DNA of 64,000 bases from Gemmatimonadales bacterium (GCA_037189525.1 JBBCJC010000001.1:512001-576000); one strand, 5' to 3'; counted from the first letter of the stretch, positions 1-13,716 are shown. Numbers and translations: made by a program. Notes: generated from the sequence alone by a model not told the origin.

Positions 1-3000
1 AAGCGGAGGGTTCCCGTTCGGGGGTCACGGCTCTCGATGTCATAACCGAGCTTGTCGAACTCGCGATCGACCGGCTCGAACCCAAGCGCCACTTCCTGCG
101 CCATCACGGCGGCACGAGCTCGGGCCGCCGCTGCCTGCGTGTCCGCGATCTCTCGGAGCTCAGGTGGCAGTTCGGTACCCATCATCTTAGCCAGCAGACC
201 GACGGGCACGACGACGACACCACCCACGACGACCGGTGGCATCGGGGTGATCTGTGCCTCGAGATCAAGCTGAGTAATCCTCTTCGCCAACCGCCCCTGC
301 AGATCATCCGCTCGCCGCCGTGCCTCCTGCGAATTGAGGCGAGCATTGGTCTTCCCAGCCTGCTCCTGGAGCCGAAGCTCCTGGGCACGGCGGTCCCAGT
401 GATTGATCTCTTTGACGAGCCGGTCCTTGACCGCAGCCTTGGCCTTCTCAATCAACCCCAACCGACGGCCTCGAACTTCACTGAGGTGCTCGGGAACGAC
501 ATTCTGAATTGCATACGCCTGCGCCTGTCGCTCCAGGTCTCGACCGATCCAGGCTAACTCAGGCCTGCGCAAGATTTCCTCGGCTCCCGGTTCCGCGGCA
601 GCGAGCGGCCGATAGTCCAGGTACGGCGCGTACTGGAGGTGCCGAGTCGGACCATCAGGCAAGAGCTCGACGTATAGCATCCGCTGGGAAATGGTTCGAC
701 GCTCGCCGGAGCGGGTTTGGCTGGCATCCTGAATTGCGTGGTCGAGGTAGAGCAACACACGCGGCGTTTCGGATGGGTCCTGCGAATCAACCAACACTGC
801 TCCACGCCGCAGCAAGTCGCGGTTTCGTTCCAGCGTAAGGTCAAGCGTGGCGTCTAGCAGCGGATGCCCGGGGCAAATGAATGCCGCCGGAATCTCGCCC
901 TGGGGCGCCAGCAGCTGCTTCTCGAACGCAACCCGCTCATAACGGGGCAGAACTGGCTCGCGAATACCAATGATGCGATCCCGGTTGCGAACGGGGGCGG
1001 GAACGTTGGTAACCTCGTAGCGTCGAGACTCACGCTGCCGGATCGTCCCGCCAACCTGCTTGAAGGCCTCGAGAAAGAAGTCCTCGATGTAGTGCGGCTG
1101 AAGGCGGCGAGCTTCCGCCCGTTCCATTTCTTCGCGGACCCGCATGACACGACTCACGTCCATCGCGTCCTGGGCGAGCGCCCGATCTTCAAGCAACCCC
1201 TGGAGGTGAGAACGGTCCACCGCATTCTCGACAACCCGGTTCAGCTTAGCCCGGACATCAGGCTGTTCACCGTACCGAATTGCTTCGATCAGCAAATCAC
1301 GGAGCGGCTTGCCGTCGAACTGCACCCGGCCGAGCACGTCAAACACCTGCCCGCCAAGAGCCTTTCGGGCCTCCTCCAGCTTCTCAAAGAGGGTGTGGTA
1401 GACGTCGCCCTCTCGAGTCTCTTCTGCCAAAAGATTCCATAGGTGGCAGACTTCCGTCTGGCCGATCCGGTGAATCCGACCGAAACGCTGCTCGAGCCGA
1501 TTGGGGTTCCACGGCAGGTCGTAATTGACCATGAGGTGGGCGCGCTGGAGATTGATCCCCTCGCCTGCCGCATCGGTCGCAATGAGAACCCGAACTTCGG
1601 GGTCGTATCGGAAAGCCTCCTGCGCCTTGCTTCGCTCCTCACGCCCCATCCCGCCGTGGATAACTACGACTGCTTCTGGCAGTCCGAATCGCGTCGTGAT
1701 CTTCTGTTGGAGATAGTTGAGCGTATCGCGGTGCTCAGTGAAAAGCACCAATTTCTGTCGTGGGGACGAAGCCGGTTTCGGGACGCCTGCTGACCCATAA
1801 GGTGGTGCAACAGGTTCAGCCACCGTATCCGAACGAGCCGGAGGTGTGAACACCTCGTCAAAGACTCTCGCTAGCTCGGCCCACTTGCGGTCCTCGCCAC
1901 TTCGCCGGACGGTGTTCGCCAGCCCTTCGAGACCAACCAGAATGGCGATTTCGGCTTTCAGCTCGTCGATGGTACGCGCGGCAGTGGCCTGGTCGAGAAT
2001 CTGCTCCTCGGCAGCTTGCACCTCATCTTCAGGAGCATCCTCGAGGTCCTCGACATCGTCAGCGTCGAGCAAAGGCCCCAGCGGAGCTAGTTCGATCCCG
2101 CCCCGCTGCATGAGCTCGAGTTCTCGCATCCGCTTTTCCAGCCGCTCGCGCCTTCTCCGAAGAGACTGGTAGATCGCTTCTGGCGAGGAGGCCAGACGCC
2201 GCTGGAGGATCGTAAGCGCGAATCCGACCGTCCCCGCCCGTTTCTCGTTTTCGAGCGCTTCGGCCCGGTTGAACTGCTCGCGAACGTAGGCGGTAACTTC
2301 GCGGTACAGCTGCGCTTCCGCTGCGGAGAGTTTATAGGGAACCGTGTACGCAATGCGCTCCGGAAACAGCGGCGTTCCGTCGAACTTGAGCAGCCGTTCC
2401 TTGACCATCCGACGCATCAGATCCGTCACGTCCTGGGTATGGACGCCATCCCTGAACTTTCCTTCGAAACGATCGCCGTCGAGCAGCGCCATAAACAACT
2501 GGAAGTCCTCTTCCTTGCCATTGTGTGGCGTGGCCGTCATCAAAAGCAGGTTGCGCGTCAAGGAGCCGAGCAACTGACCGAGACGATACCGCTTGGTGTA
2601 CTTGACCTCCCCGCCAAAAAACGTGGCCGACATCTTGTGGGCTTCATCGCAAACGACGAGATCCCAGCGACAGTCGGGGGCCTGAAGCTTCTGCTGAACG
2701 TCCTCGTCTCGAGAGAGCTTGTCCAGCCGGGCAATGACAAGATGGTTCTCGAGAAACCAGTTTCCCGTACGGGCCGCCTCGAGCTTGTCGTTGGTAAGGA
2801 TGTCAAACGGCAGATTGAACCGCTTGAACAACTCGTCCTGCCACTGCTCGGCAAGGCTACCTGGGCAGACGATGAGGCAGCGCTGGAGGTCACCCCGAGC
2901 GATCAGCTCCTTGATCAGTAGCCCGGCCATGATCGTCTTCCCTGCGCCGGGATCGTCGGCCAACAGGAAACGAAGCGGCTGACGCGGAAGCATCGATTCG

Positions 3001-3341
3001 TAGACCGCCGTGATCTGATGGGGGAGCGGGTCAACGAGCGAGGTGTGAACAGCTAGGACCGGATCAAACAGGTGAGCCAGTCGGATTCGGTTGGCCTCAG
3101 AGACGAGGCGGAACAAGGCCCCATCGCCGTCGAAGCTCCAGGGTCGGCCCTGCTCGACCACCTCGAACCGAGGCTCGTCGTGGCGATAGAGCAACTGATT
3201 GGCAACACGACCCGCAGGGTCTTTATACGTGAGTTCCAGAGCGTCTGACCCGAACCACTGCGTGGTTACCACAGTGATCAGGGCATCAGGTATGAGGCCG
3301 CGAATGATGGCGCTGGCCCGAAGATCCTCCAGTTTGCTCAA
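1..3341 (-). CDS. SNF2-family (SF2) helicase with C-terminal DUF3883-like domain; 3' end truncated by the window edge
   Basis: Translated by hand, partially (absent from the ORF track, consistent with no in-window stop). TTG start after a GGAGGAG SD. Motifs PLPHQ, LLADDPGAGKT (Walker A), CDEAHKM (Walker B), LMTATPHNGK. At the window edge GYDIESRDPRTGTLR, as in DUF3883. Confidence 0.9.
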   Translation of the reverse strand, partial: MSKLEDLRASAIIRGLIPDALITVVTTQWFGSDALELTYKDPAGRVANQLLYRHDEPRFEVVEQGRPWSFDGDGALFRLVSEANRIRLAHLFDPVLAVHTSLVDPLPHQITAVYESMLPRQPLRFLLADDPGAGKTIMAGLLIKELIARGDLQRCLIVCPGSLAEQWQDELFKRFNLPFDILTNDKLEAARTGNWFLENHLVIARLDKLSRDEDVQQKLQAPDCRWDLVVCDEAHKMSATFFGGEVKYTKRYRLGQLLGSLTRNLLLMTATPHNGKEEDFQLFMALLDGDRFEGKFRDGVHTQDVTDLMRRMVKERLLKFDGTPLFPERIAYTVPYKLSAAEAQLYREVTAYVREQFNRAEALENEKRAGTVGFALTILQRRLASSPEAIYQSLRRRRERLEKRMRELELMQRGGIELAPLGPLLDADDVEDLEDAPEDEVQAAEEQILDQATAARTIDELKAEIAILVGLEGLANTVRRSGEDRKWAELARVFDEVFTPPARSDTVAEPVAPPYGSAGVPKPASSPRQKLVLFTEHRDTLNYLQQKITTRFGLPEAVVVIHGGMGREERSKAQEAFRYDPEVRVLIATDAAGEGINLQRAHLMVNYDLPWNPNRLEQRFGRIHRIGQTEVCHLWNLLAEETREGDVYHTLFEKLEEARKALGGQVFDVLGRVQFDGKPLRDLLIEAIRYGEQPDVRAKLNRVVENAVDRSHLQGLLEDRALAQDAMDVSRVMRVREEMERAEARRLQPHYIEDFFLEAFKQVGGTIRQRESRRYEVTNVPAPVRNRDRIIGIREPVLPRYERVAFEKQLLAPQGEIPAAFICPGHPLLDATLDLTLERNRDLLRRGAVLVDSQDPSETPRVLLYLDHAIQDASQTRSGERRTISQRMLYVELLPDGPTRHLQYAPYLDYRPLAAAEPGAEEILRRPELAWIGRDLERQAQAYAIQNVVPEHLSEVRGRRLGLIEKAKAAVKDRLVKEINHWDRRAQELRLQEQAGKTNARLNSQEARRRADDLQGRLAKRITQLDLEAQITPMPPVVVGGVVVVPVGLLAKMMGTELPPELREIADTQAAAARARAAVMAQEVALGFEPVDREFDKLGYDIESRDPRTGTLR

Positions 3342-3761
3342 GTACGGACTCCTCCGATCAAGCCGAACGCCCGCGAGGAAAATCGTTCATGGGTGTGTCA
3401 TTGAGCTGACAAGTGGCCCGGACCGGGGCTCGCTGAAATTAACCCAACCCCAGCAATGACAAAAGGTTACAGCATGGCATTGACGAAGTCGATCCCCCTA
3501 TGCATTGGGCTTTAGGAGAGACTACCCACAACCGTGGCTGCCCACGCTCGGGATGCCGCTCAAGCATGCATTGCCTCGACCCCGTTAATCCACAAACCGG
3601 AAACCGAAACTTGGCAAAATAGGAGCCACTATGTTGGGCTATTTGAAGGCCAATTCGACGGAAATGGAATCGAGCGCTGGCGATGTGTAGAGGGGGCTTG
3701 ATCGACAATGCCGCCGGATGGTCGACAGTCCCTCCACAGCAATTCGGTAACCGCGCGGACA

Positions 3762-3846
3762 CAACTTTTGAGCATTTCAAATGTACGAAAGTTGCCAAGA
3801 CTGGCACGACTAAGTACTTTCGAAAATCTGAAATGCTGGAAAGTTG
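3762..3846 (+). promoter_or_regulatory. Sigma70-like promoter overlapped by a 33-bp imperfect inverted repeat (putative autoregulatory operator)
   Basis: TTGCCA (3792-3797)-N17-TACTTT (3815-3820). Arms 3762-3794 and 3814-3846 match at 26/33 positions as an inverted pair. Confidence 0.65.
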
Positions 3847-3849
3847 ACA

Positions 3850-5685
3850 ATGGCGCTCCATCTCGTCGGCGAAACTATCGACAAGGCACAGGCCCACACC
3901 ATGGCCCAAGCCGGCCGGCTAGTTCAGCTGATGCGCGGTATCTATGTGAATGCCAGCGACGATGTCGAAGAAACCGTCCTCCGACATGCCATCCGGATCG
4001 CCCGATACCTCTACCCCCGCGCCTACCTCTCGGCGGCCAGCGCCATCCTGCTCGGCCCCACCCGCGATGGCCGGCTGTTCCTGAGCGGGCGCAATGCCCG
4101 GCGGACGCGCCTTCGGGCACTGGAGATCATCCAGAACGTGGCGCCCGAGCATCCATCGACCGCCCCGGCGTTCATCAACGACGGCATGGGCGAATTCACT
4201 GTCGAGGTGTCCTCGATCCGGCAACGTTTTCTCGAGGCATTCCGCATCCGAGGCGAGCACGCCGCGTCGCTCGACGAGGCCATGCGTGAGGGCGTCGCCA
4301 GGCGTCTCGTCGAAGAGTACGGCACGCCGCAGGCCGCCGCCGACGCCGTCTGGCGCCTGGCACGGGACAACGCATGGTATCGCGAAGGGGAACGCGCCGA
4401 ACGCTTCCTGCTGCATCGGCCCACAGCCACGCCCCCGCGCAACAAAGCGGCGCTGGACCTGACGGTTGCCTGGCATGGCACGCCGGTAGGCCGCCTGATG
4501 CATGACGGATTCGAATGGCGTTGGTACAGTAACCCATGGAAAGCGCCACCACTGATCCGGCAAACCACCCCGGGCGCGCTACCGCCCTTCATCGTTTCGT
4601 TGCTACCCGAAGGCTGGCTGGAGTCCGTGCTCCGCAGCAGCGACGAGCGCGCGTTGCTGCGGTCCGGCAAGCGGTACATGTCCAACATCACGATCGTCGA
4701 GCAACCGAGCGAATTGACCGAGTTGCCGGCCGACATCCTGACGACGCCGCTGGCGCGCTTCACGAACGACGGCATCTTCACCGGGCACTACGCCGGTCCG
4801 GGGCGCGGCCCGCTCGAAGAAAGTTTCGAACGCAACCTCGCCGCGATCTTTGCGGACAGCCGCACGCCGCGCTTGTCGGGCATCCAGATCAAAGCGCCGA
4901 TGTTCCTCGCGGAAGACGGCTCCTTGTTGCCGAGTGAGGACCGGCCGTTCACCCATATCCTCAAGCCCGCTGGCACCGGCGGCTTCGAAGCGTTGCCGCT
5001 GATCGAGTGGCAGGCCCTAACGCTTGGCGCAGCAATCGGACTCGACACTCCCGCCATGGCGCTCGTGTCCATGCCGGACGGCTTGCCGCCCGCCCTACTG
5101 GTCGAGCGCTTCGACATTCGCCAGAGCGAGAACGACACGCGCCTGCTCGCGCTAGAAGACCTGTGTTCCGTGTTGGGTGTCCCCTCATCGGCTAAGTACA
5201 GCGGCAGCATCGAACGGGTGGCTCGCGCCCTCCGGCCGCTCTCGACCACACCGCACGATGACCTGCTCGTCCTTTTCCGGCGTGCACTGTTCGCGTGGTG
5301 CATCGCCGATGGCGACATGCATCTCAAGAACCTGGCGTTACTCAAGATCGCCGAACCGGGCAAGGCCGCATTCGAAAGTGTGCGGATGGCGCCGCTCTAT
5401 GACGCCGTCACGACCCGCGTCTTTCCCCATCTGACGCGAGACCGCATGGCGCTCATGATTAACGGCAAAGACGATCGACTGCGCCGTTCCGATTTTATGA
5501 CTATGGCTGCAACGATCGGGGTACGGCCAACCGACGCGAAACAGACCATCGACGATCTGACCGCGCGCCTGCGCACCGAGATTGGTACACTGACCCTGCC
5601 GACCATCGCCGTCGAGTCACGAACGGCCGACCGCGCGGCTGCCATGCGCCGACTCGTAGGGGAACGAATCGATACACTGGCATAA
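3850..5685 (+). CDS. HipA-family Ser/Thr kinase toxin with N-terminal AbiEi-like/DNA-binding extension
   Basis: FIVSLLPEGWL (HipA N-terminal coupled region), LSGIQIK, ILKP, LLVERFD, DGDMHLKN, MAPLYD. About 200 extra N-terminal aa with LMRGIY and YLSAASA. Confidence 0.85.
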   Translation: MALHLVGETIDKAQAHTMAQAGRLVQLMRGIYVNASDDVEETVLRHAIRIARYLYPRAYLSAASAILLGPTRDGRLFLSGRNARRTRLRALEIIQNVAPEHPSTAPAFINDGMGEFTVEVSSIRQRFLEAFRIRGEHAASLDEAMREGVARRLVEEYGTPQAAADAVWRLARDNAWYREGERAERFLLHRPTATPPRNKAALDLTVAWHGTPVGRLMHDGFEWRWYSNPWKAPPLIRQTTPGALPPFIVSLLPEGWLESVLRSSDERALLRSGKRYMSNITIVEQPSELTELPADILTTPLARFTNDGIFTGHYAGPGRGPLEESFERNLAAIFADSRTPRLSGIQIKAPMFLAEDGSLLPSEDRPFTHILKPAGTGGFEALPLIEWQALTLGAAIGLDTPAMALVSMPDGLPPALLVERFDIRQSENDTRLLALEDLCSVLGVPSSAKYSGSIERVARALRPLSTTPHDDLLVLFRRALFAWCIADGDMHLKNLALLKIAEPGKAAFESVRMAPLYDAVTTRVFPHLTRDRMALMINGKDDRLRRSDFMTMAATIGVRPTDAKQTIDDLTARLRTEIGTLTLPTIAVESRTADRAAAMRRLVGERIDTLA

Positions 5686-5968
5686 CGGAATCGAGCCTGG
5701 AAATTGATAGCTGAGGGAAGCTAGGGAGTTTCGTTTCGAGCCTGCAACCTCTCGCTTAGCAGCCAGCATTGTATGACTCCACAGTACATCAACGGAGATA
5801 CAATCAAACGCGCCTGCCTTTCGGGCTAGGGTATCGCAGTCCGGTTGGTCTGCGAAGCGTAGTTCAGACAAGCAACCTACCGTATGTCCACTAAATCGAT
5901 GCGGCCCTAAGACAAGAGCAGGTTCGTCGACGCTCGTTAGCTGGCCTGAATAATGTCGGACGATTGCA

Positions 5969-6925
5969 CTACCACGGAATCTCGGCACCAAGGTAAAGAA
6001 GCTTTGCTTCGAGTTCTTTACGTTCGCGGCTCCGTGCCATTTCGCCAGACTCCGAAACGGCAAGGAGGCCTGCCTGCCTCGCGACATCTCTTGCCCGTTT
6101 AACATCACCTGCGATGAGGGCCCCGAGTACGTCGACCTCCACTCTCGAAAGTGAGACAGAGTGCAGTCTGTAATCACCGAATGCCTCCCAAACAATCGGC
6201 ACCCACCGCGCAACCACCTGTTCGCCGATCAACTGTGCATAGCTTCGAATCTCGTATTGAGCGTGCGTGTCCATCCTAAGCAGGAGAAAGTGGAGCAGAT
6301 TGTGGAGGTCGATCTTCCAGTATGCTTCTGTATATGTAGAAAGAGGTAGGTCTTTCCGCGCTTGCTCACGTGCCACTCCAGCGTTGAGACGGGCTTCATA
6401 AACACGCCTCAGTTCCCGGTGGATGGCCTGTTCCTCATCTGACAAGACGGAACCGATCGCCAGAGGAAGAAATCCGTCACTACCTTGCCGGTTCTCACCG
6501 GCCTGTTGGCGCCATCGATCCGCAGCCGTCTGTTCAGCGGAGTCAATCGCGACGGAATAGCGAGTCGAATATTCGTTGACACTCGCAGTTCTATGGCGGA
6601 TCCATTGCCGCCATACATCCATAGGTGCGCGCACGTGCAACTTGATCTCACACATCTCAAACGGCGTAGTGTGATGATGCCGCATTAGATACCGAATCAA
6701 ACCGCGATCCTCATGCACACGCTTCGTTCCAACACCGTAGGAAACGCGAGCTGCCTGCACCACAGAGGCGTCGTTTCCCATATAGTCTACGACCCTCACA
6801 AATCCGTCATCGAGAACGTGGAGCGGAACACCGAGAATCGCGTCCAGATCGGGCGTGATCGGCCGACCGACCGGCTCCGGCTTAGATACGCCACCATCCG
6901 CCGCTCCCCTCACCGGCTCAGTCAT
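5969..6925 (-). CDS. thyX: Flavin-dependent thymidylate synthase ThyX
   Basis: ARVSY, HTTPFE, RQWIRHRTASVNEYSTRY (ThyX signature), REQARKDLP, HAQYEIR. Confidence 0.95.
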   Translation of the reverse strand: MTEPVRGAADGGVSKPEPVGRPITPDLDAILGVPLHVLDDGFVRVVDYMGNDASVVQAARVSYGVGTKRVHEDRGLIRYLMRHHHTTPFEMCEIKLHVRAPMDVWRQWIRHRTASVNEYSTRYSVAIDSAEQTAADRWRQQAGENRQGSDGFLPLAIGSVLSDEEQAIHRELRRVYEARLNAGVAREQARKDLPLSTYTEAYWKIDLHNLLHFLLLRMDTHAQYEIRSYAQLIGEQVVARWVPIVWEAFGDYRLHSVSLSRVEVDVLGALIAGDVKRARDVARQAGLLAVSESGEMARSRERKELEAKLLYLGAEIPW

Positions 6926-6937
6926 CGTAGCTTCACC

Positions 6938-8035
6938 TTACCCCCCTAGCTCCAAATACGCCCGTCTCTCTCTCGTTGCGATGTCATCGACAAGCGCCTT
7001 CAGGCGTCCGAACGACAACATCCACCTCTGACCCGTTCCGCTACTGTATTGGGGAAGAAACCCCTCAGGCGAGGGATACTCAATGTGGATATCAGGATGA
7101 AGGGCCTTGGCAAAGAAACAACCTACGGCCTGCATCTTGCTTCCAGCGGGTGCGAGTAGTACACGGTGTGTCTCTGAGAGCTCCCAATACAGCTCGACCA
7201 AGAGAGAAACTGTTTCCCGATAGTCCAGGGTTGACACGGCCCGGATAGGAAGCTCGTCGCCCAGCGCATCGGCTACACTTGGGTTGTCGTTCATCCACTC
7301 TCGGCATACTTCGGCGTGAATCCAAGCTGTAGCTTGCTGCCGCCAATGATGGACGGGTGGACGCCCGTTGATCAGCAGAAGGCGACTTGGGTACACGGTG
7401 TTCAATAAGACTTGCGTTAATGTATCGTTAAAGGACATGAAGACGACCGCCGCAGTAGGCTGACCCTGCATCGCGACACTCGAGAGACTTCCAACCCGGA
7501 CGACACCATGAACGCCAGTATAAATCTGAAGCGTGGGGCGATGGATCTCGTTGCGACGTCGAGCTGTTTCGAATTCCTCATGACTAGGGCCGTAGATCTC
7601 AGCCTCCGAGTAGAGGAGGATCACTTCACGGTCAAGCTCCAAGCATACCTTCAACGTGAGAATCACAGCCAGCTTGGACATCGTCGAGATATCAACTACA
7701 ACCCGCTGCGCGTTACGTTGCGCCAGTCGTTCCCGCAAGGCTCCCTCATACCCCGCCGGGTTGAACCGATCGTACTCGACGATATCCGAACTCTGTGTTT
7801 CGACGCCGCAGGCTTTTAATCCGTTGCGGACGTCAGCTAGCCTGTTGCCCTCGTTGTACGGTAGATAGGTAAGTAGAATCGCAGATGCCCCCGGATCTGC
7901 CACTAGCAGATCTAACAGCGACAACGTCCTGTCTTCGAATCCTGGTGCATGTACGATGACGTCCTGGGGGCCGATGAGTATCCGGTTTACAGGTGAAAGG
8001 ACAGGCAGCGCAGCCCCTAGGTCGTGCAAAATCAT
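6938..8035 (-). CDS. Hypothetical protein with two Rossmann/CARF-like repeats
   Basis: 365-aa ORF, TAATG overlap with the upstream gene, GAGGAG SD. Repeated strand-loop-helix patterns VVVDISTMSK and VLLAPAGSK. The fold call is inference. Confidence 0.7.
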   Translation of the reverse strand: MILHDLGAALPVLSPVNRILIGPQDVIVHAPGFEDRTLSLLDLLVADPGASAILLTYLPYNEGNRLADVRNGLKACGVETQSSDIVEYDRFNPAGYEGALRERLAQRNAQRVVVDISTMSKLAVILTLKVCLELDREVILLYSEAEIYGPSHEEFETARRRNEIHRPTLQIYTGVHGVVRVGSLSSVAMQGQPTAAVVFMSFNDTLTQVLLNTVYPSRLLLINGRPPVHHWRQQATAWIHAEVCREWMNDNPSVADALGDELPIRAVSTLDYRETVSLLVELYWELSETHRVLLAPAGSKMQAVGCFFAKALHPDIHIEYPSPEGFLPQYSSGTGQRWMLSFGRLKALVDDIATRERRAYLELGG

Positions 8036-10746
8036 TACGACTCCTCACCTACGTTACCAGAAGTATTCTTCTCAGACAGAATATCGTCGTACGTGCGGTC
8101 GTACTCGATGTCTTCTCCCTCTTCATCAAATAATTGCATCTGATCACTTGGTACGCGTTTTACACTGAACCTATCCTTAAACAGATCAGGCTCCAAGAGA
8201 AGGAGGACAAAATCATCGCAAGTGAGTTGGACACTATCACGCTTTGACAGGGCGAGCGTGCAGTATGGCAGTAGCAGACGACGCAGGTACAGGCGCGGAA
8301 CAAAAGCCCCCCGAACGCTTTTCCCTCGACTATCTCGCATAAACAATCCATAGCGGATTAGATCGCGGTAAATTTCGCGCGCAAGGCCTTCAATCCTAAA
8401 ATCATCCACAATCTCAAGTCGAAATGCCATTCTCGGCACTTCACGGGGCACAGAACCTTCACGAATCGTGTAGGCAGGTCCAGCCAGCAATTGGGTTGCT
8501 GCGTCCACGAAAGCCTCCACTATCGCTTTTAGGTGGTCACCATAGTGACCTTGAAGTGCATACTGACCCCTAGCTTCGTTGAGGACCGCCAGTTCATGCT
8601 TGACAACATCGGGGCTGGTTGGCTCGTTTCGAGTATGTGAATTCAGCCACTCGCCACCTCGATTGCGAAACACACGGTCCTGAACGATGGGGTCTACAGG
8701 TGTCACGACGATCTCCTCACCTGGATGACGTGGCCCCTGATCAAGAACGTCGGTGATCAACTGGATCATTGTTCGCGTGTCGCCCGACCAAAGATTCGCG
8801 AACACGTCCTCGCCGTGGTAAAGTACGCGACCTCGCGACCGGCCCCGTCGCTGCGACTTCGCCGATACCGGGGGAGGCTCTGATGACGGTACCCCTTGGT
8901 GAGAAAGGCGGAGCCGACGAGCAAACTCTGTCTTGGTGATGCCGAGATCACCAAGCAAGCTTCGAAGATCTACCTCGCTATTCCGAACACGTGGATCTAT
9001 GCGAAGACGCCGAGAAAGTACCTCTCGAAGGAAAGCAAGTCGATCAGTGTCAGCAAGAAATAGGGACTCTTCTCCCATGTCGACAAGCTGGTAATCATCA
9101 CCGTCCTGTAGCTGCTTTCCGCTGGAGTCCTCCGGCACGAAGGTACTCCACGCTTCAGTGGCCACCTTTGCAAGAAAATCAGGCGATCGCTGCAAAAAGA
9201 GGCGATTCAGGACGCGTTGCATCGAGAGTGGTATTCTCGGAGTAGAAAAATCGTCAACGAACAACAACGCGGATCTATCGTTCATCCACGGGCAGCAGCC
9301 TCGTACCTGCTGGACAAAACGGGGGAGCCAGCGGTGCTGCGACATTTCACTCAAGCCGGGAAACAAGGGTCCTTCGGCGTCCGGAAAGCTCCACTTGATC
9401 TCTTCGAGAACAGCACGATATCGCTCAAGCCGATCCTCACCGACAACAAGTGCTTGGAACGTCTGCGGGACAAGCCATCGATGGACAAGGTCTAAAAGGG
9501 CTTCTGGCGGCGGGTCCCTAAAGCGGCCAGCACGCGCGGACTGAACTGTGAGCAAATCGCCGAGGACACAAAGGTTCGCATAGCAGGTTAACCTGGCCTG
9601 ATCTTCGACGCTTGGAACCTCTGGATAATTAGCGAATGCGTCCGCAAAATCGTTCGCATTCACATACAAAGCAACGAATCGGTCCGGAAGGTCGGCGACC
9701 TGTCCGCATTCTACTATCAGGCGTTCACTCAGCCGCCTGAACAGCATCGTCTTTCCGCATCCACGCGGACCAGTGACAACGGTTGGTATGTCAAGCGCAA
9801 GAATCTTTGACCGAGCTGGCACTGTTGGAACAAACAGCCGTCGCCACCAATCCCACCGTTCCCCTATCATTTCGCTTACTTGGAACTGGCCTACGGTTGG
9901 TTTCTCGTCCCCTGTCTGAACACCCTCAATTGCATCTGGACCAAGATTTCGATTTGCATGCCCATTCGTAGCTTGCGCCGAACGCTTGATATCCGCCAGA
10001 TGCCTGAGCAAGTCAAGTGGCTTTCGTCGCTCAGGGCCGGTTCCATCCCGCAGAAGCTTGCCAAGGTCTCGCTGCATCGAACGGAGGATGTGACGATGTG
10101 TGGGCGTCGCGACCGCATGATTCACGCGAGCGATGATACCGTCGATTATTCGCGCGAGACCATGGTAGTCGTCTTTGAGCTCAACAGCACCGCCCGTAAC
10201 ACCGTACCCGAAATCGGAGACATAAATCTCCGCACGCGGCCGTAAGGTATCGTCAAGCAGTGCCTCAGTTGGAGTACCAATGAGAATATTTCCCGAGTGC
10301 AAATCGCCATGACGCGGCACCCCCTTCACCTCACAAGCGTGCAGCACTCGCAGGATCCGCTCAACAACAGCGAGCAGGAATCCGGCGTCTACGGTACGGA
10401 CCCTTTGGAGGTACTGTGCGAGATTTTCCCCGGGCGGAACGAAATCCCAGACCGTATATTGGCATAGGTGAGTGCTACCCCCAAGGGATATACTTGCTGG
10501 CCCAAGGTCATGGAAGTGTACAACGCCGTCAACGCGATCTAAGCTGGTGACTTTCCTAAGCTCGGCTTCCCACCCACTCTTTAGACTGAAGGTTAATTTT
10601 ACAGCTCGAATAGCGTCTGGAAATTTCTCAAGGGAAGCTCGGTAGACGTAACCAATCTTACCTGCACCGATGAATTCGTGCAGCACCAAATTTCCCACAC
10701 TTTGGCCGCTCAAGTTACGGCACCAGTCGTCAGGAGGCCGAGACAT
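8035..10746 (-). CDS. Protein-kinase-like domain fused to a P-loop (ORC/CDC6-like AAA+) ATPase
   Basis: Kinase motifs: IGAGKIG, AVK, HGDLHSGN, DFG. ATPase motifs: GPRGCGKT, LLFVDD, downstream SGDTR. Confidence 0.85.
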   Translation of the reverse strand: MSRPPDDWCRNLSGQSVGNLVLHEFIGAGKIGYVYRASLEKFPDAIRAVKLTFSLKSGWEAELRKVTSLDRVDGVVHFHDLGPASISLGGSTHLCQYTVWDFVPPGENLAQYLQRVRTVDAGFLLAVVERILRVLHACEVKGVPRHGDLHSGNILIGTPTEALLDDTLRPRAEIYVSDFGYGVTGGAVELKDDYHGLARIIDGIIARVNHAVATPTHRHILRSMQRDLGKLLRDGTGPERRKPLDLLRHLADIKRSAQATNGHANRNLGPDAIEGVQTGDEKPTVGQFQVSEMIGERWDWWRRLFVPTVPARSKILALDIPTVVTGPRGCGKTMLFRRLSERLIVECGQVADLPDRFVALYVNANDFADAFANYPEVPSVEDQARLTCYANLCVLGDLLTVQSARAGRFRDPPPEALLDLVHRWLVPQTFQALVVGEDRLERYRAVLEEIKWSFPDAEGPLFPGLSEMSQHRWLPRFVQQVRGCCPWMNDRSALLFVDDFSTPRIPLSMQRVLNRLFLQRSPDFLAKVATEAWSTFVPEDSSGKQLQDGDDYQLVDMGEESLFLADTDRLAFLREVLSRRLRIDPRVRNSEVDLRSLLGDLGITKTEFARRLRLSHQGVPSSEPPPVSAKSQRRGRSRGRVLYHGEDVFANLWSGDTRTMIQLITDVLDQGPRHPGEEIVVTPVDPIVQDRVFRNRGGEWLNSHTRNEPTSPDVVKHELAVLNEARGQYALQGHYGDHLKAIVEAFVDAATQLLAGPAYTIREGSVPREVPRMAFRLEIVDDFRIEGLAREIYRDLIRYGLFMRDSRGKSVRGAFVPRLYLRRLLLPYCTLALSKRDSVQLTCDDFVLLLLEPDLFKDRFSVKRVPSDQMQLFDEEGEDIEYDRTYDDILSEKNTSGNVGEES

Positions 10747-10752
10747 ACGCAG

Positions 10753-11898
10753 CTATCGCTTGTGGTAAATCAGCACAGTTTCGTGCTTTGTTCCACGGCA
10801 CTCGCGTCGGGAGCGCCGAATATCAGGAATACTGTCCTCGTAAGAGGACGTCAGGCGATAGTCCCTCAAACGCGGAGCATTTGCGAATACTTCTTGAACC
10901 AGCTCTGCCGTACGCACGGGCTGTGATACCCTACGTGTCACGTCTCCCACCACGAGCACGAAACAACCACCTGGTAGGATGTTCCCAGCAAACCTATCGC
11001 ATACAGCCCTGAGGAGGAGGCGAAACGCCTCGGCTCGACCATGGCCACTGAGTTCCAAACCCTTTGGCAGCGTCTTATTGATAAACCAAAGCCGAAGACG
11101 ATTGTCTCGGACGTAGTCCAACTCATTCATATAAGGCGGGCTCGTAATCACCGCGCGAATCCCGCGAACTCGCGGAAACTCGCGCGCATCGCCCGTAACC
11201 ACACGACGAGGCTCTAAGTACGGCGAGGGTTGCCGCCGAAATGTTCGGAGAATTTTCGCTTCCAACCTTGGGAGCACATCGCGGGGCTCGTACAGGTCTG
11301 GGTATTCTCCTCGCGGGAATTTCCGCTCGCGGAGGTAGGGCACCAAGTGACTACTTGGATATGACAAGAACCCGGGCCGCTGGTGATGTAGTATCCCTAG
11401 GAGGCTCGCCAGTAGAAACTCGTCACCTAGTCTCACACAGGCATCGCGAAACGCTAGTGCAGATCGAAGCGTTTCCGGATGGAAGAATCTTCGAACCCAA
11501 GGAGGGACCGTTCTAAGGTCCTGGTGGGCAAACCGATTTTGGGCAACTGTCCATGCATGATGGAGACGCTTCTGAGCCGCTGCTATAGATCGAGGGGGAA
11601 ACAGTTTGGCGCGAGTAAGTAGAACCGCGTACGGATTCCAGTCACCGACCACGACTCGACGCTGCAATGCTGCGGCTTCAAGAGCAACGACACCACACCC
11701 ACAAAAGGGATCAACAATCAAGTCTCCCCTTGCCGTTTGCGAACTGATTAACTCACGCGCCATCGACGTTTTCATCCGGCCGATGTATGGTGCGAGTTGA
11801 TGTAGGCTAATGTCGGTTGCTGTGGTCGAGCCCCTTGACCATGGAACCTGACGCATGACGCTACCAAGTTTTGGTGCCGCGGGTTTCCGTTTGGGCAA
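10753..11898 (-). CDS. DNA amino-methyltransferase (SPPY motif, likely N4-cytosine; alpha-like motif order)
   Basis: DPFCGCG (SAM-binding motif I) lies N-terminal to ITSPPY (motif IV). TTG start; alternative ATG at 11856. Confidence 0.85.
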   Translation of the reverse strand: MPKRKPAAPKLGSVMRQVPWSRGSTTATDISLHQLAPYIGRMKTSMARELISSQTARGDLIVDPFCGCGVVALEAAALQRRVVVGDWNPYAVLLTRAKLFPPRSIAAAQKRLHHAWTVAQNRFAHQDLRTVPPWVRRFFHPETLRSALAFRDACVRLGDEFLLASLLGILHHQRPGFLSYPSSHLVPYLRERKFPRGEYPDLYEPRDVLPRLEAKILRTFRRQPSPYLEPRRVVTGDAREFPRVRGIRAVITSPPYMNELDYVRDNRLRLWFINKTLPKGLELSGHGRAEAFRLLLRAVCDRFAGNILPGGCFVLVVGDVTRRVSQPVRTAELVQEVFANAPRLRDYRLTSSYEDSIPDIRRSRRECRGTKHETVLIYHKR

Positions 11899-12540
11899 TT
11901 GAACCCCAATGTAGAGTGCGGCGGTTCGAGTTCATCGGACTCGCATGGACGCCGAAAAGCTGTCGCTTAAGTAATTGCTACCATTGACGATACGACGACA
12001 ACCCCCTTTTCGCCACCCTCGCCCGATGCAGCCTGTTGACCCCGTTCTGATAGCCATCTGAGTGGCTCGATCCTCCTCCAATCGTCCTGTAACCACGACG
12101 ATGATGCGATTGCGGCGCCGGCGCCGCTCTTGCCAAGCAGCGCCAACGTCTAAACAGCTGCGGGGAGCTCCGCCGAAACCTCATCAGAGAGGCGAGACGC
12201 TGGCGACACACAGGAGGCACTCGCGATCTACTCCGTCCATAGCGACCACCGCGTGGTATGGGTCGAATAGCCTCACCCCTTGAAATCGGCGCGGATGGCG
12301 TCGAGCACGTGGGCGGACACCTGTTTGAGCCGGCCCGCGATGGTCGCGAACGGTGAGATCACCACCGGCGTCGGCGTCGCCTCCTGGCACGGGTCGCCGT
12401 CATTGGGGGGCTCATCGGAAAGGGGTTTCCTTTGACGCGGAGAACCACGAAGCGAGGGCTCACCGGCCCGTCCAGGTCCGGCCATCCGCTTCGGGAAGGG
12501 CTCTCGAGTTCTTGGCTGCCCCGCCCTCCCCGCTTTGCCG

Positions 12541-13716
12541 CTACCCGGCCGGTCGTGCTTTCCAGGCGGCCAAAATCTCGGCCTCACGTTTCATTTGCTG
12601 ATCCATCGACGCTGGACCAGTCAGGCCGGCGCCCCTGAGGCCGCCACGCATGGCGCTCCGACGCTCCTCCGGTTGTTCCTTCCACCACGCCAGGGTGTCA
12701 CGGACAGTGTCGGCAAATGGCCGGAATGCCATGCCATTGGCGAAACAGCGTACCGGTGAGAGGCGGGCGAGGCCGTGGTAGGGGCCTTCTTGATCGACCC
12801 ATGGCATCAGGCTGACCGGCGGGACGCCTGATTCCGCCAGGAACGGCCCGGGTACCCAGGTCAGCTCTGGCTGCGCACCGATCGCGGCGGCGATGCCCTC
12901 GAGCATCTGGCCCATTGTCATGCCGTCTTTGGGCCCGATGGCATGGAAGGTATTGGTCAGCCGCTGTTCCACGCAGTGGAGACTGAAATCGGCGAGATCG
13001 CGCGCGTCGACGTACTGGACCGGATCGCCCGCGCTGCCAAAGGCCATCATCTCCCCGCCGCGGTCGATCCGGGCCGGGTAGTAGGTGAAACGGTCAGTGC
13101 CGTCACCAGGGCCTACGATCAGCCCCGGTCGGGTGATGGTGTAGCGGCCAGGGAATGCGGCCCGAACTTCCTCCTCGCAGGCCCCCTTGAGCTGCCCGTA
13201 ATACCGGCCCACTTCCTCCGAGCCCGGCTCCGGGAGTTCAGCTACCTGCGCATCTTCGTCGATGAAGCCCTCGGGCCAGGCGTTCTCGAACATGGCTTTG
13301 TAGAGACCGGCCGTCGACGTGAACAGGTAGTGGTCCGCTGCATCCTTGAGGAGTTGGGCGGAGTCCCGCACGTGCCGCGGCACATAGCCTGAATTGTCGA
13401 GGACCACGTCCCAGCGGTGGCCTTCCAGCGCTTTGAGGTTGCCGTCACGATCGCCCTCGAGCTTCTCGACCTCTGGAAAGAGTTGCGGATTGGTCTTGCC
13501 ACGGTTGAAGATCGTCACCTCGTGCCCCCGATCGAGGGCAGAGCGCACCATGTGCGGGCCGAGGAATCCGGTGCCGCCGAGGATGAGGACCTTGAGCGGT
13601 TTTGCGGAGTCTTTGCCGGCGCAGGACGACAGTGCAGGCAAGAGCGACATTGCCCCTGCGGCGGCAACCGAGGCGCGTACGAATTCTCGCCGGTTGGGAA
13701 CTCTTGGAGTATGCAT
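12541..13716 (-). CDS. NAD-dependent epimerase/dehydratase (atypical SDR) with Tat-like signal
   Basis: NRREFV twin-arginine motif, GGTGFLG, YGQLK, RPGLIVGP. Confidence 0.85.
   Translation of the reverse strand: MHTPRVPNRREFVRASVAAAGAMSLLPALSSCAGKDSAKPLKVLILGGTGFLGPHMVRSALDRGHEVTIFNRGKTNPQLFPEVEKLEGDRDGNLKALEGHRWDVVLDNSGYVPRHVRDSAQLLKDAADHYLFTSTAGLYKAMFENAWPEGFIDEDAQVAELPEPGSEEVGRYYGQLKGACEEEVRAAFPGRYTITRPGLIVGPGDGTDRFTYYPARIDRGGEMMAFGSAGDPVQYVDARDLADFSLHCVEQRLTNTFHAIGPKDGMTMGQMLEGIAAAIGAQPELTWVPGPFLAESGVPPVSLMPWVDQEGPYHGLARLSPVRCFANGMAFRPFADTVRDTLAWWKEQPEERRSAMRGGLRGAGLTGPASMDQQMKREAEILAAWKARPAG

Follow-up and report, generated by a model that had tools for sequence, protein, structure and literature searches.

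A candidate methylation-associated defence cassette with a kinase-AAA+ and tandem-CARF core and a recurrent thymidylate synthase accessory

The window, the whole stretch of 64,000 nucleotides of Gemmatimonadales DNA analysed here, carries at positions 5969 to 11898 a block of four minus-strand genes for a methyltransferase (methylase), a kinase-ATPase fusion, a tandem-CARF protein and the thymidylate synthase (TS) ThyX. We regard this block as a candidate methylation-associated, NTPase-switched defence cassette, the mechanism of which we infer below. Across 44 related loci, the kinase-AAA+ protein and the tandem-CARF protein are the constant part and the third partner is exchangeable, while ThyX is an accessory of the methylase-type branch, missing from 31 of the 44 relatives, rather than part of the core. 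We see an even chance that the block was acquired horizontally as a copy of a methylation-linked cassette, rare yet widespread, with a kinase as its output, to which a TS accessory has been added under selection. The families of the core proteins are already known as CARF6 profiles in PADLOC-DB. What is new is the co-divergence of ThyX with the core as against the swapped methylase type, the multiple recruitments of TS and the figures on TS redundancy, together with a probable case of thyA replacement, a DruA-type branch without TS, and CARF fusions to TIR, histidine kinase and phosphoesterase domains.

The four genes and their products

Read from 11898 to 5969, the block consists of the methyltransferase gene (10753..11898, a 381-amino-acid (aa) open reading frame (ORF) from the first TTG), the kinase-ATPase fusion gene (8035..10746, 903-aa ORF), the tandem-CARF gene (6938..8035, 365-aa ORF) and thyX (5969..6925, 318-aa ORF), all on the minus strand. 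The first two genes lie 6 nt apart, the 903-aa and 365-aa genes overlap by 1 nt at TAATG, and 12 nt separate the last two; the ORF coordinates agree with this arrangement as described in an earlier reading made from the DNA alone (the sequence-only reading). The GC content, which that reading had placed below that of the host genes, is 0.54-0.56 in the four genes against 0.66 in the right flank, and the block is the lowest-GC portion of a mosaic island of ~25 kb. The four-gene block is horizontally acquired, and its arrangement lies far beyond chance, since dozens of unrelated genomes show the genes in this order.

We assign the 381-aa protein as an S-adenosylmethionine-dependent amino-methyltransferase of the N4-C/N6-A type, on the basis of matches to Pfam N6_N4_Mtase (1.6e-08) and UPF0020 (2.6e-08) and to PADLOC MTase_II (2.2e-20). 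Methyltransferase motif I (F65, G67, G69) lies upstream of the catalytic SPPY (S253-P254-P255-Y256), and these residues are invariant in 24 homologues. A profile built from the 24 homologues reached solved beta-class N4C/N6A DNA methylases (2zie, 1.1e-10; 8s9n, 7.8e-09), the motif blocks of which stand in permuted order relative to the 381-aa family. The alignment with homologues begins at about residue 20, so that translation may in fact start from the ATG at residue 15. A complex prediction combining the methylase with residues 290-903 of the 903-aa protein (its AAA+/C-terminal part) scored 0.00 and gave no verdict.

The 903-aa protein comprises a kinase fold (~10-260), an ORC/Cdc6-like AAA+ domain (~300-580), and a lid with an alpha/beta C-terminal region (575-870). 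It matches Pfam ORC-CDC6-like (2.4e-21) and PADLOC CARF6--CARF_STK_AAA (PDLC01925, residues 89-704, 8.1e-19), with weak PADLOC matches to mad6 (8.9e-06) and PD-T4-6 (1.2e-05), and Pfam Pkinase is present in its homologues. Among 18 homologues, the kinase residues G27/G29/G32, K50, H146-G147-D148...N153 and D178-F179-G180 are invariant, as are Walker A (G326-T333) and D498-D499 of the AAA+ domain. The sequence-only reading had pointed to STAND-type systems as a precedent for the ATPase; Pfam assigns it to the ORC/Cdc6-like AAA+ group instead, with no STAND-type NACHT/NB-ARC domain found in the 903-aa protein and the other AAA hits generic and sub-threshold. Residues 575-903 are modelled (pLDDT, the predicted local distance difference test, 86) as an AAA+ lid followed by the alpha/beta region, which may be a winged helix: the best structure matches were AAA+ lids (Z <=5.5) and a weak ORC2 winged-helix row (Z 4.3), none at Z >=8, and Foldseek returned nothing at E <=0.001 for the C-terminal third. 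No effector or nuclease domain was recognised in this third, the C-terminal 200 residues of which are without a match at Z >=8. Relatives of the 903-aa protein at 60-73% identity number in the hundreds and occur in very diverse bacteria.

No Pfam family matches the 365-aa protein, and PADLOC identifies it as CARF6--CARF_CARF_CARF (PDLC01917, 3.4e-11; residues 22-343 against profile positions 14-303 of 308). Its AlphaFold2 model (pLDDT 92.9) contains two Rossmann-like domains, ~22-145 and 192-345, and in a structure search of 48,161 representative chains the top 13 matches were all CARF proteins or the uncharacterised VC1899. The best of these was Can1 (6sce_A; Z 14.1, root-mean-square deviation 3.8, 243 residues across both domains), which itself carries two CARF domains per chain, and further matches included Csa3 (Z 12.4), Card1 (Z 12.0), Csm6 (Z 11.5) and Can2, with unrelated Rossmann folds at Z <=9.2. 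Sequence identity to the CARF structures is just 7-15%. The CARF match came from this wide structure search; Foldseek on the same model gave USP, CODH and transporter rows of low TM-score. A search of the ESM Atlas gave solely unnamed 'hypothetical protein' clusters. As judged from its modelled fold, the 365-aa protein is confirmed as a tandem-CARF sensor without an effector domain. The CARF-like call of the sequence-only reading is therefore upheld by the fold match to Can1, and its other three identities (methyltransferase, kinase-ATPase and ThyX) likewise correspond to significant family or fold assignments.

Residues conserved among 31 sequences of the CARF family fall in loops of both domains (D115/S120 in one, G298/S299/K300 in the other), and we infer that these loops form a putative ligand pocket. 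A profile from the same 31 sequences found 459 representative clusters at E <=1e-30 among 1.84 billion proteins. Rare members (P0144/P0172/P0259) are fused to a calcineurin-like metallophosphoesterase (724 aa), to HisKA+HATPase_c (670 aa) and to TIR (420 aa), which is the behaviour of a ligand-sensing input domain.

The 318-aa protein can be taken on its sequence as a bona fide ThyX, with matches to TIGR02170 (9.7e-52; 175.6 bits against a cut-off of 87.9) and Pfam Thy1 (2e-49) and an intact RHR...S motif (R110-H111-R112, S115). It is the sole ThyX of the genome, and ThyX occurs in 0 of 21 other genomes of the genus. As the genome also holds thyA, on another contig, the cassette ThyX is an extra TS copy.

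A constant core with an exchangeable partner

The 44 related loci came from a scan of one genome per species using two peptide patterns, and were annotated by tblastn with the window proteins, longest-ORF calls and two Pfam passes over 220 flanking ORFs. Since the patterns found the loci, the sample is biased to family members that keep these motifs. In these approximate counts, a CARF protein adjoins the kinase-ATPase or is fused with it in 40 of the 44 loci, and in L029, L031, L032 and L038 the two form a single ORF of 1122-1226 aa. The two window genes therefore represent, as separate parts, a protein that is fused elsewhere, which explains why the 365-aa protein also matches positions 891-1007, the C-terminal part, of the fused 1187-position profile PDLC01925. 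The loci without a CARF match are L025 and L046, on short or truncated contigs, and L036 and L045, which have an ORF of the right size undetected by tblastn.

Beside the kinase-ATPase stands a methylase of the window's family (27/44), another N6_N4 methylase (L032) or a DruA-family protein (PF14236; 13/44: L033-L037, L039-L045 and L047). Neither was found at L009, with an insertion sequence beside the cassette, or at the truncated L025 and L046. The DruA-linked sister cassettes have the same kinase-AAA+ and tandem-CARF pair in the same order at all 13 loci, at 19-29% identity, and differ in that the Druantia DruA-family protein, located upstream of the kinase-ATPase or downstream of CARF, replaces the methylase and that TS is never adjacent (0/13). 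One of them is archaeal (L039, Methanobacteriaceae). Compared with a Mom-like protein of L004 by hhalign, the 13 DruA-like proteins gave a probability of 0.1, and their profile found nothing meaningful among PDB sequences. Two side observations concern individual loci: in L023 (7629-8867) a Mutator-family transposase interrupts the kinase-ATPase gene, and one Thermoanaerobaculia metagenome-assembled genome (MAG; G004) holds two cassettes (L007 and L030), whose kinase-ATPases are 25% identical and each of which has a ThyX, with ThyA elsewhere in the genome.

The cassette is rare. It occurs in 0 of 100 relatives of the source genome, including all 20 other same-genus genomes searched, and in 3 of 401 genomes of Acidobacteriota, the phylum where it is commonest, all three of these being already among the loci. 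The flanks of the relatives carry type I and IIL restriction-modification systems, McrBC, GmrSD, AbiE, Fic, nSTAND3-Mrr, DUF499 and SIR2 genes, as well as integrases and transposases. Further genes are inserted within or directly upstream of cassettes, namely a ParA-like ATPase with SIR2_2 (L022:2954-4844), GmrSD_N with an unknown gene (L019:4473-6372), a Mom-family protein (L004:5818-6723) and a low-GC dCTP-deaminase (DCD)-like protein (L017:5156-5728). Flanking and inserted defence genes of this kind are what a defence system would be expected to show. The triad, lacking ThyX, is also present on two IMG/VR contigs, where the nearby PHROG matches are weak and tail-like, and PHROGs holds no family for the kinase-ATPase or the CARF protein.

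The sequence-only reading had proposed that the four genes form one functional unit in a defence setting. A unit is borne out by the common low GC in 11 loci, the operon-like spacing and the co-divergence of ThyX with the core, and the linkage is conserved across relatives, with a methylase in 28 and a TS in 13 of the 44 loci. The defence setting is likewise seen both in the window, with Hma, NACHT and HipA genes, and near relatives, with restriction-modification, McrBC, GmrSD, AbiE and SIR2. Its inclusion of ThyX holds in part: ThyX is linked in 11 of the 44 loci and shares the cassette GC, and it is an accessory, with no TS in 31 of the 44 relatives.

Thymidylate synthase and the proposed mode of action

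TS adjoins the cassette as ThyX in 11 loci and as ThyA in 2 (L017 and L018), and is found at 12 of the 28 methylase-linked loci and at L009. ThyX follows CARF on the same strand in L004, L005, L006, L007, L009, L010, L011 and L012, is convergent in L022 and L030, and is divergent in L028. In a quick maximum-likelihood tree of the kinase-ATPase, which carries a long-branch warning, the same-strand loci belong to one clade (97% in the Shimodaira-Hasegawa-like approximate likelihood-ratio test) with ThyX in 9 of its 11 members (all except L008 and L024), the ThyA pair forms its own clade (100% support), and L022, L030 and L028 fall in other places. No fewer than five changes of TS label are imposed by well-supported branches, and on this tree a TS joined the cassette independently on about five occasions at the least, the recruits belonging to two unrelated enzyme classes (ThyX and ThyA). 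The recruitment of both classes suggests selection on the dUMP-to-dTMP activity rather than on a particular protein.

The GC content of ThyX tracks the cassette and not the flanks in 11 of 11 loci; in L012, for example, the flanks are at 0.72-0.73 and the four genes at 0.57-0.58. Over nine loci, pairwise ThyX identity correlates with that of the kinase-ATPase (rho 0.49) and of CARF (rho 0.65) and not with that of the methylase (rho -0.12), these being descriptive values from non-independent pairs. The methylases of the nine loci are of two types, neither of which tracks the core. Because ThyX co-diverges with the core and the methylase type is swapped, ThyX is tied to the core more stably than the methylase type. 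Layouts beyond the 44 loci include integrase-ThyX-methylase-kinase in a metagenomic contig (L075) and, at a distant cassette (L080:3922-8556), Tmk on the opposite strand followed by ThyX, HD and NUDIX genes, a small thymidine-nucleotide cluster.

Most genomes with a cassette ThyX do not rely on it: a second TS is present in 10 of the 11, as ThyA in six and as a tandem-domain ThyX in four, with none found in G001. The double-domain ThyX (two Thy1 domains, ~530 aa; 747 aa in G006) is encoded at G002:C7:186511-187932, G005:C1:3350538-3351893, G010:C2:7957-9300 and G006:C1:298220-299473, and is apparently the housekeeping TS of these four genomes. Two simpler accounts of the linkage were rejected. 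The cassette did not merely land beside a host thyX, given that ThyX shares the cassette GC and that 10 of the 11 genomes have another synthase, and a cassette-specific ThyX variant was ruled out, its N- and C-terminal extensions being common to unlinked relatives.

Two genomes with a cassette-linked ThyA differ from this pattern. In G011 no TS was found besides the ThyA adjacent to the cassette, and folA flanks the cassette on its far side. G012 has a broken high-GC host thyA, with codons 1-97 immediately upstream of the insert and codons 160-266, followed by folA, ~500 bases from the end of another contig (fragments and insert at L129, G012:C31:29237-36660, and L128, G012:C1:281510-282361). 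Next to the N-terminal fragment, the low-GC (0.40-0.45) insert carries a complete, different thyA, then CARF, the kinase-ATPase and the methylase. If the contigs join, as is suggested by their ends, a unit of ~8 kb (thyA and cassette) would have replaced the middle of the host thyA, and the insert would thereby be hard to lose.

In the mechanism that we propose, the core would act as a sensor-switch-effector pair, formed by the kinase/ORC-Cdc6-like AAA+ fusion and the tandem-CARF ligand sensor, and would be coupled to an exchangeable partner for DNA marking or recognition, here the amino-methyltransferase. The methylase would mark host DNA as self, the AAA+/C-terminal module and the CARF pocket would integrate a DNA or nucleotide cue of infection, and the N-terminal kinase would provide the output by phosphorylating host or phage proteins and thereby arresting the phage, much as in Pgl/BREX type 2, MADS or Stk2. 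In methylation-based systems, according to PMC12839542 and the MANTIS preprint, ATPases of the ORC/Cdc6 clade serve as switches for loading or regulation. The ligand of CARF is probably derived from phage or from damage, because the cassette encodes no signal synthase. As for ThyX, our leading guess, though less likely than not, is that it gives host-independent thymidylate synthesis, supplying dTMP and clearing dUMP during infection. The benefit could arise, for example, against phages that shut down the host TS or replace thymine.

The most serious alternative accepts the three-gene core as defence and treats TS as cargo that aids retention, by backing up or replacing an essential host gene or by rescuing thyA-defective recipients. 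We consider it somewhat unlikely, although several observations speak for it: the split host thyA of G012 lies beside an insert with its own full thyA, the cassette TS is the sole one found in G011 (ThyA) and G001 (ThyX), and ThyX is of the ordinary housekeeping type. However, the second TS in 10 of 11 cassette-ThyX genomes means that these do not depend on the cassette copy, and decay would be expected of a redundant hitchhiker, whereas 9 of the 11 members of a diverged clade have retained ThyX, the divergence of which parallels that of the kinase-ATPase and CARF. A retention value should hold for the DruA type too, yet TS is adjacent in none of those 13 loci. The genomes G001, G011 and G012 are, moreover, drafts or derived from metagenomes, and a second TS could be missing from the assemblies.

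Thymidylate metabolism might itself be what is monitored. CARF would then bind dUMP, dTMP or a 5-substituted pyrimidine nucleotide of phage rather than cyclic oligoadenylate, TS would be the baseline or guarded enzyme, and the kinase would fire when the pathway is hijacked. Solved CARF domains bind oligoadenylates and are not known to bind pyrimidine mononucleotides, and most cassettes, including all of the DruA type, have no TS, so we regard this as quite improbable. It would nevertheless account for the conserved CARF loops in the face of no signal-making enzyme being encoded in the cassette or detected in the genome, for the repeated recruitment of TS from two enzyme classes, and for the Tmk, HD and NUDIX genes (L080) and the DCD-like gene (L017) near some cassettes. 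A published argument also holds that sensors without a signal synthase may read phage-modified nucleotides (PMC10853773).

It is less probable again, and in our judgement very unlikely, that the block has no role in immunity and is a replication or epigenetic module of mobile elements, in which an initiator-type ORC/Cdc6-like ATPase is combined with a methylase, a kinase and a source of dTMP. Each of the four functions has a bearing on DNA replication, some copies are flanked by integrases, a relaxase, transposases or ParB/RepB genes, and the triad is present on the two IMG/VR contigs. Yet what usually moves is a block of three or four genes that includes none for replication or transfer, and most of the genes around it belong to defence. 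SIR2 and GmrSD_N have inserted into it, TIR is fused to the CARF family, and PHROGs lacks both core families. We scarcely credit the idea that type III CRISPR or CBASS employs CARF and the kinase-ATPase as ancillary effectors responding to cyclic oligonucleotides made elsewhere in the genome: the fold is nearest to effectors activated by cyclic oligoadenylate (Can1, Csa3, Card1, Csm6 and Can2), but neither the 98.1%-complete genome (no Cas10 above cut-off, no Cmr2, no SMODS cyclase) nor the flanks annotated in the 44 loci (no cas or cyclase genes) offers a source of the signal.

Several points weigh against the defence cassette with a selected TS accessory. (i) The effector. The kinase is the proposed output, and no nuclease or classical effector was found: Pfam, PADLOC and structure searches of the four cassette proteins recognised no family or fold of nuclease, and hence no cognate endonuclease of the kind that classical type II restriction-modification places beside its methylase. 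The statement of the sequence-only reading that no nuclease motif is evident therefore stands for recognised families, and for the C-terminal third of the 903-aa protein it means no more than that no match reached Z >=8. The source of the signal is a related difficulty, as the single Cas10 match in the genome scored 31 bits against a cut-off of 170, and a cyclic oligoadenylate signal from CRISPR or CBASS is unlikely because no cyclic-nucleotide synthase is encoded in the cassette or was detected in the 98.1%-complete genome. (ii) The methylase. At L009 (5279-6370) an insertion sequence (rve) occupies the expected position of the methylase, which is missing, and at L005 (12264-13410), in a long-read MAG, the methylase matches fall in three frames. 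Either the core is not lethal without its methylase, or these are dead copies, or L005 contains sequencing errors. (iii) The TS link. TS is absent from 16 of 28 methylase-linked and all 13 DruA loci and is therefore not required, and the dependence of G001, G011 and G012 on a cassette-linked TS fits retention equally with defence. Of the 80 metagenomic relatives closest to this ThyX (56-73% identity over the full length, terminal extensions included), only 3 are cassette-linked, many of the contigs being short, and unlinked members of the ThyX subclade sit among housekeeping genes. On the ThyX tree the linked proteins do group together (label changes number 8, against 13.3 when shuffled; 0 of 500 shuffles as low), and this reverse test indicates that the cassette ThyX is ordinary, captured from a housekeeping lineage and not specialised. 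(iv) The data. The 44-locus counts are approximate owing to the two-pattern search and the crude longest-ORF gene calls, long-branch warnings on the quickly built trees and the non-independent pairs temper the trees and the rho values, and a look-up of sequence runs found the stretch in one soil-metagenome DNA run, with no RNA run listed.

Relation to known systems and genomic surroundings

By comparison with described systems, the cassette could be viewed as a compact relative of Pgl/BREX and MADS with a CARF input that fails membership of each. PMC12839542 describes for Pgl/BREX type 2 a methylase, a protein kinase and an ORC/Cdc6-clade AAA+ protein, no obvious nuclease and a location in defence islands, all of which resemble the cassette. 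The cassette differs in having no PglZ phosphatase, BrxA/BrxB or helicase, in combining kinase and ATPase in one protein, in its small N6_N4-type methylase, which is not PglX, and in its tandem-CARF sensor. At E 0.01, no Brx/Pgl profile of PADLOC appeared among the six matches of the kinase-ATPase, the nine of the CARF protein or the best 25 of 44 methylase matches, and ThyX matched no profile. MADS (10.1101/2023.03.30.534895) is also methylation-based, and its operon holds both a kinase and a methylase. It comprises eight genes, one of them for a specificity subunit, against three or four here, and has no described CARF or TS, and the cassette proteins gave weak, domain-level matches to mad2 (2.1e-06) and mad6 (8.9e-06), with no other mad profile among the matches listed.

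The CARF effectors of type III CRISPR (Can1, Card1/Can2, Csa3 and Csm6) share the sensor fold, whereas the cassette CARF has no nuclease or HEPN domain and no linkage to cas or cyclase genes. As for TS, the available part of the DefensePredictor study (PMC13092281) reports both a TS domain and a HipA-family kinase in experimentally validated defence units. Compared by description only, that TS unit has dNMP-kinase, 5-hmdU-kinase and NMAD domains, with no kinase-AAA+, CARF or methylase mentioned in that part. Closest of all are the CARF6 profiles of PADLOC (CARF_STK_AAA, PDLC01925; CARF_CARF_CARF, PDLC01917; and others), which describe the same families as the 903-aa and 365-aa proteins, here split, and the names of which we take to stem from a CARF census paper. 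These profiles catalogue proteins only, and we saw no system definition, methylase partner, TS link or experiment attached to them. A literature search, the scope of which did not extend to the CARF census, yielded nothing on 'CARF6' and no account of the cassette, of its partner methylase or of its link to TS. The sequence-only reading had not recognised the gene set as a named system; no named or tested system was found, while profiles do exist in PADLOC for the two core proteins.

Nuclease-free methylation-linked defences (BREX, Pgl and MADS) are poorly understood, and a compact relative of three genes would be a small and tractable model for them. Repeated capture of TS from two enzyme classes, in co-divergence with the core, offers an unusual connection of immunity to dTMP synthesis, one that can be tested directly, and the probable thyA replacement in G012 suggests how a defence block might become hard to lose. 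If TS is ordinary cargo, the core is still a clean and widespread candidate system for screens. If instead thymidylate is sensed, the cassette would represent a CARF pathway that has no signal synthase, and it would be the first defence to employ a housekeeping-type TS as a working part.

Besides the cassette, its island encodes a NACHT protein, a HipA-like kinase and a complete Hma system, within which a GmrSD_N gene is embedded. No integrase was seen among the annotated genes of the island, and its borders hold no tRNA and no repeat beyond one of 12 nt, which is at chance level. A scan of 3300-12700 gave three promoter-like and four terminator-like sites, not above shuffles. The HipA and SNF2 helicase genes named as neighbours by the sequence-only reading are both present. 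The former encodes a HipA_C kinase of 613 aa (3844-5685, plus strand) with a long N-terminal region that gives weak matches to AbiEi-like helix-turn-helix domains, and its GC content of 0.63-0.70 is host-like or higher and differs from that of the modules on both sides. A 156-aa ORF of no family (3439-3909, minus strand) overlaps the start of the HipA_C gene on the opposite strand. The SNF2 helicase, with PF13020/NOV_C at its C-terminus, is HmaA (1192 aa), the neighbour of the cassette; PF13020 is presumably the former DUF3883. It belongs to a complete Hma (BREX-related type 1) system (L003:9722-17766 and window 3-3341, G000:C1:503722-515341; PADLOC E = 0 for HmaA, HmaB and HmaC), together with the HEPN-DUF499 ATPase HmaC (1108 aa) and the DUF1156 methylase HmaB (1004 aa). 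At the left edge of the low-GC island, 17 kb from the cassette and beside host-like WYL/PafBC-type regulators, lies the minus-strand gene of a NACHT-type protein of 1485 aa with HEAT repeats and a C-terminal NCAB2 domain (L003:5177-9634, G000:C1:499177-503634). Between HmaB and HmaA, a GmrSD_N/DUF262 gene encodes a 567-aa protein that matches the PADLOC profiles PDC-M55C and HEC-05.

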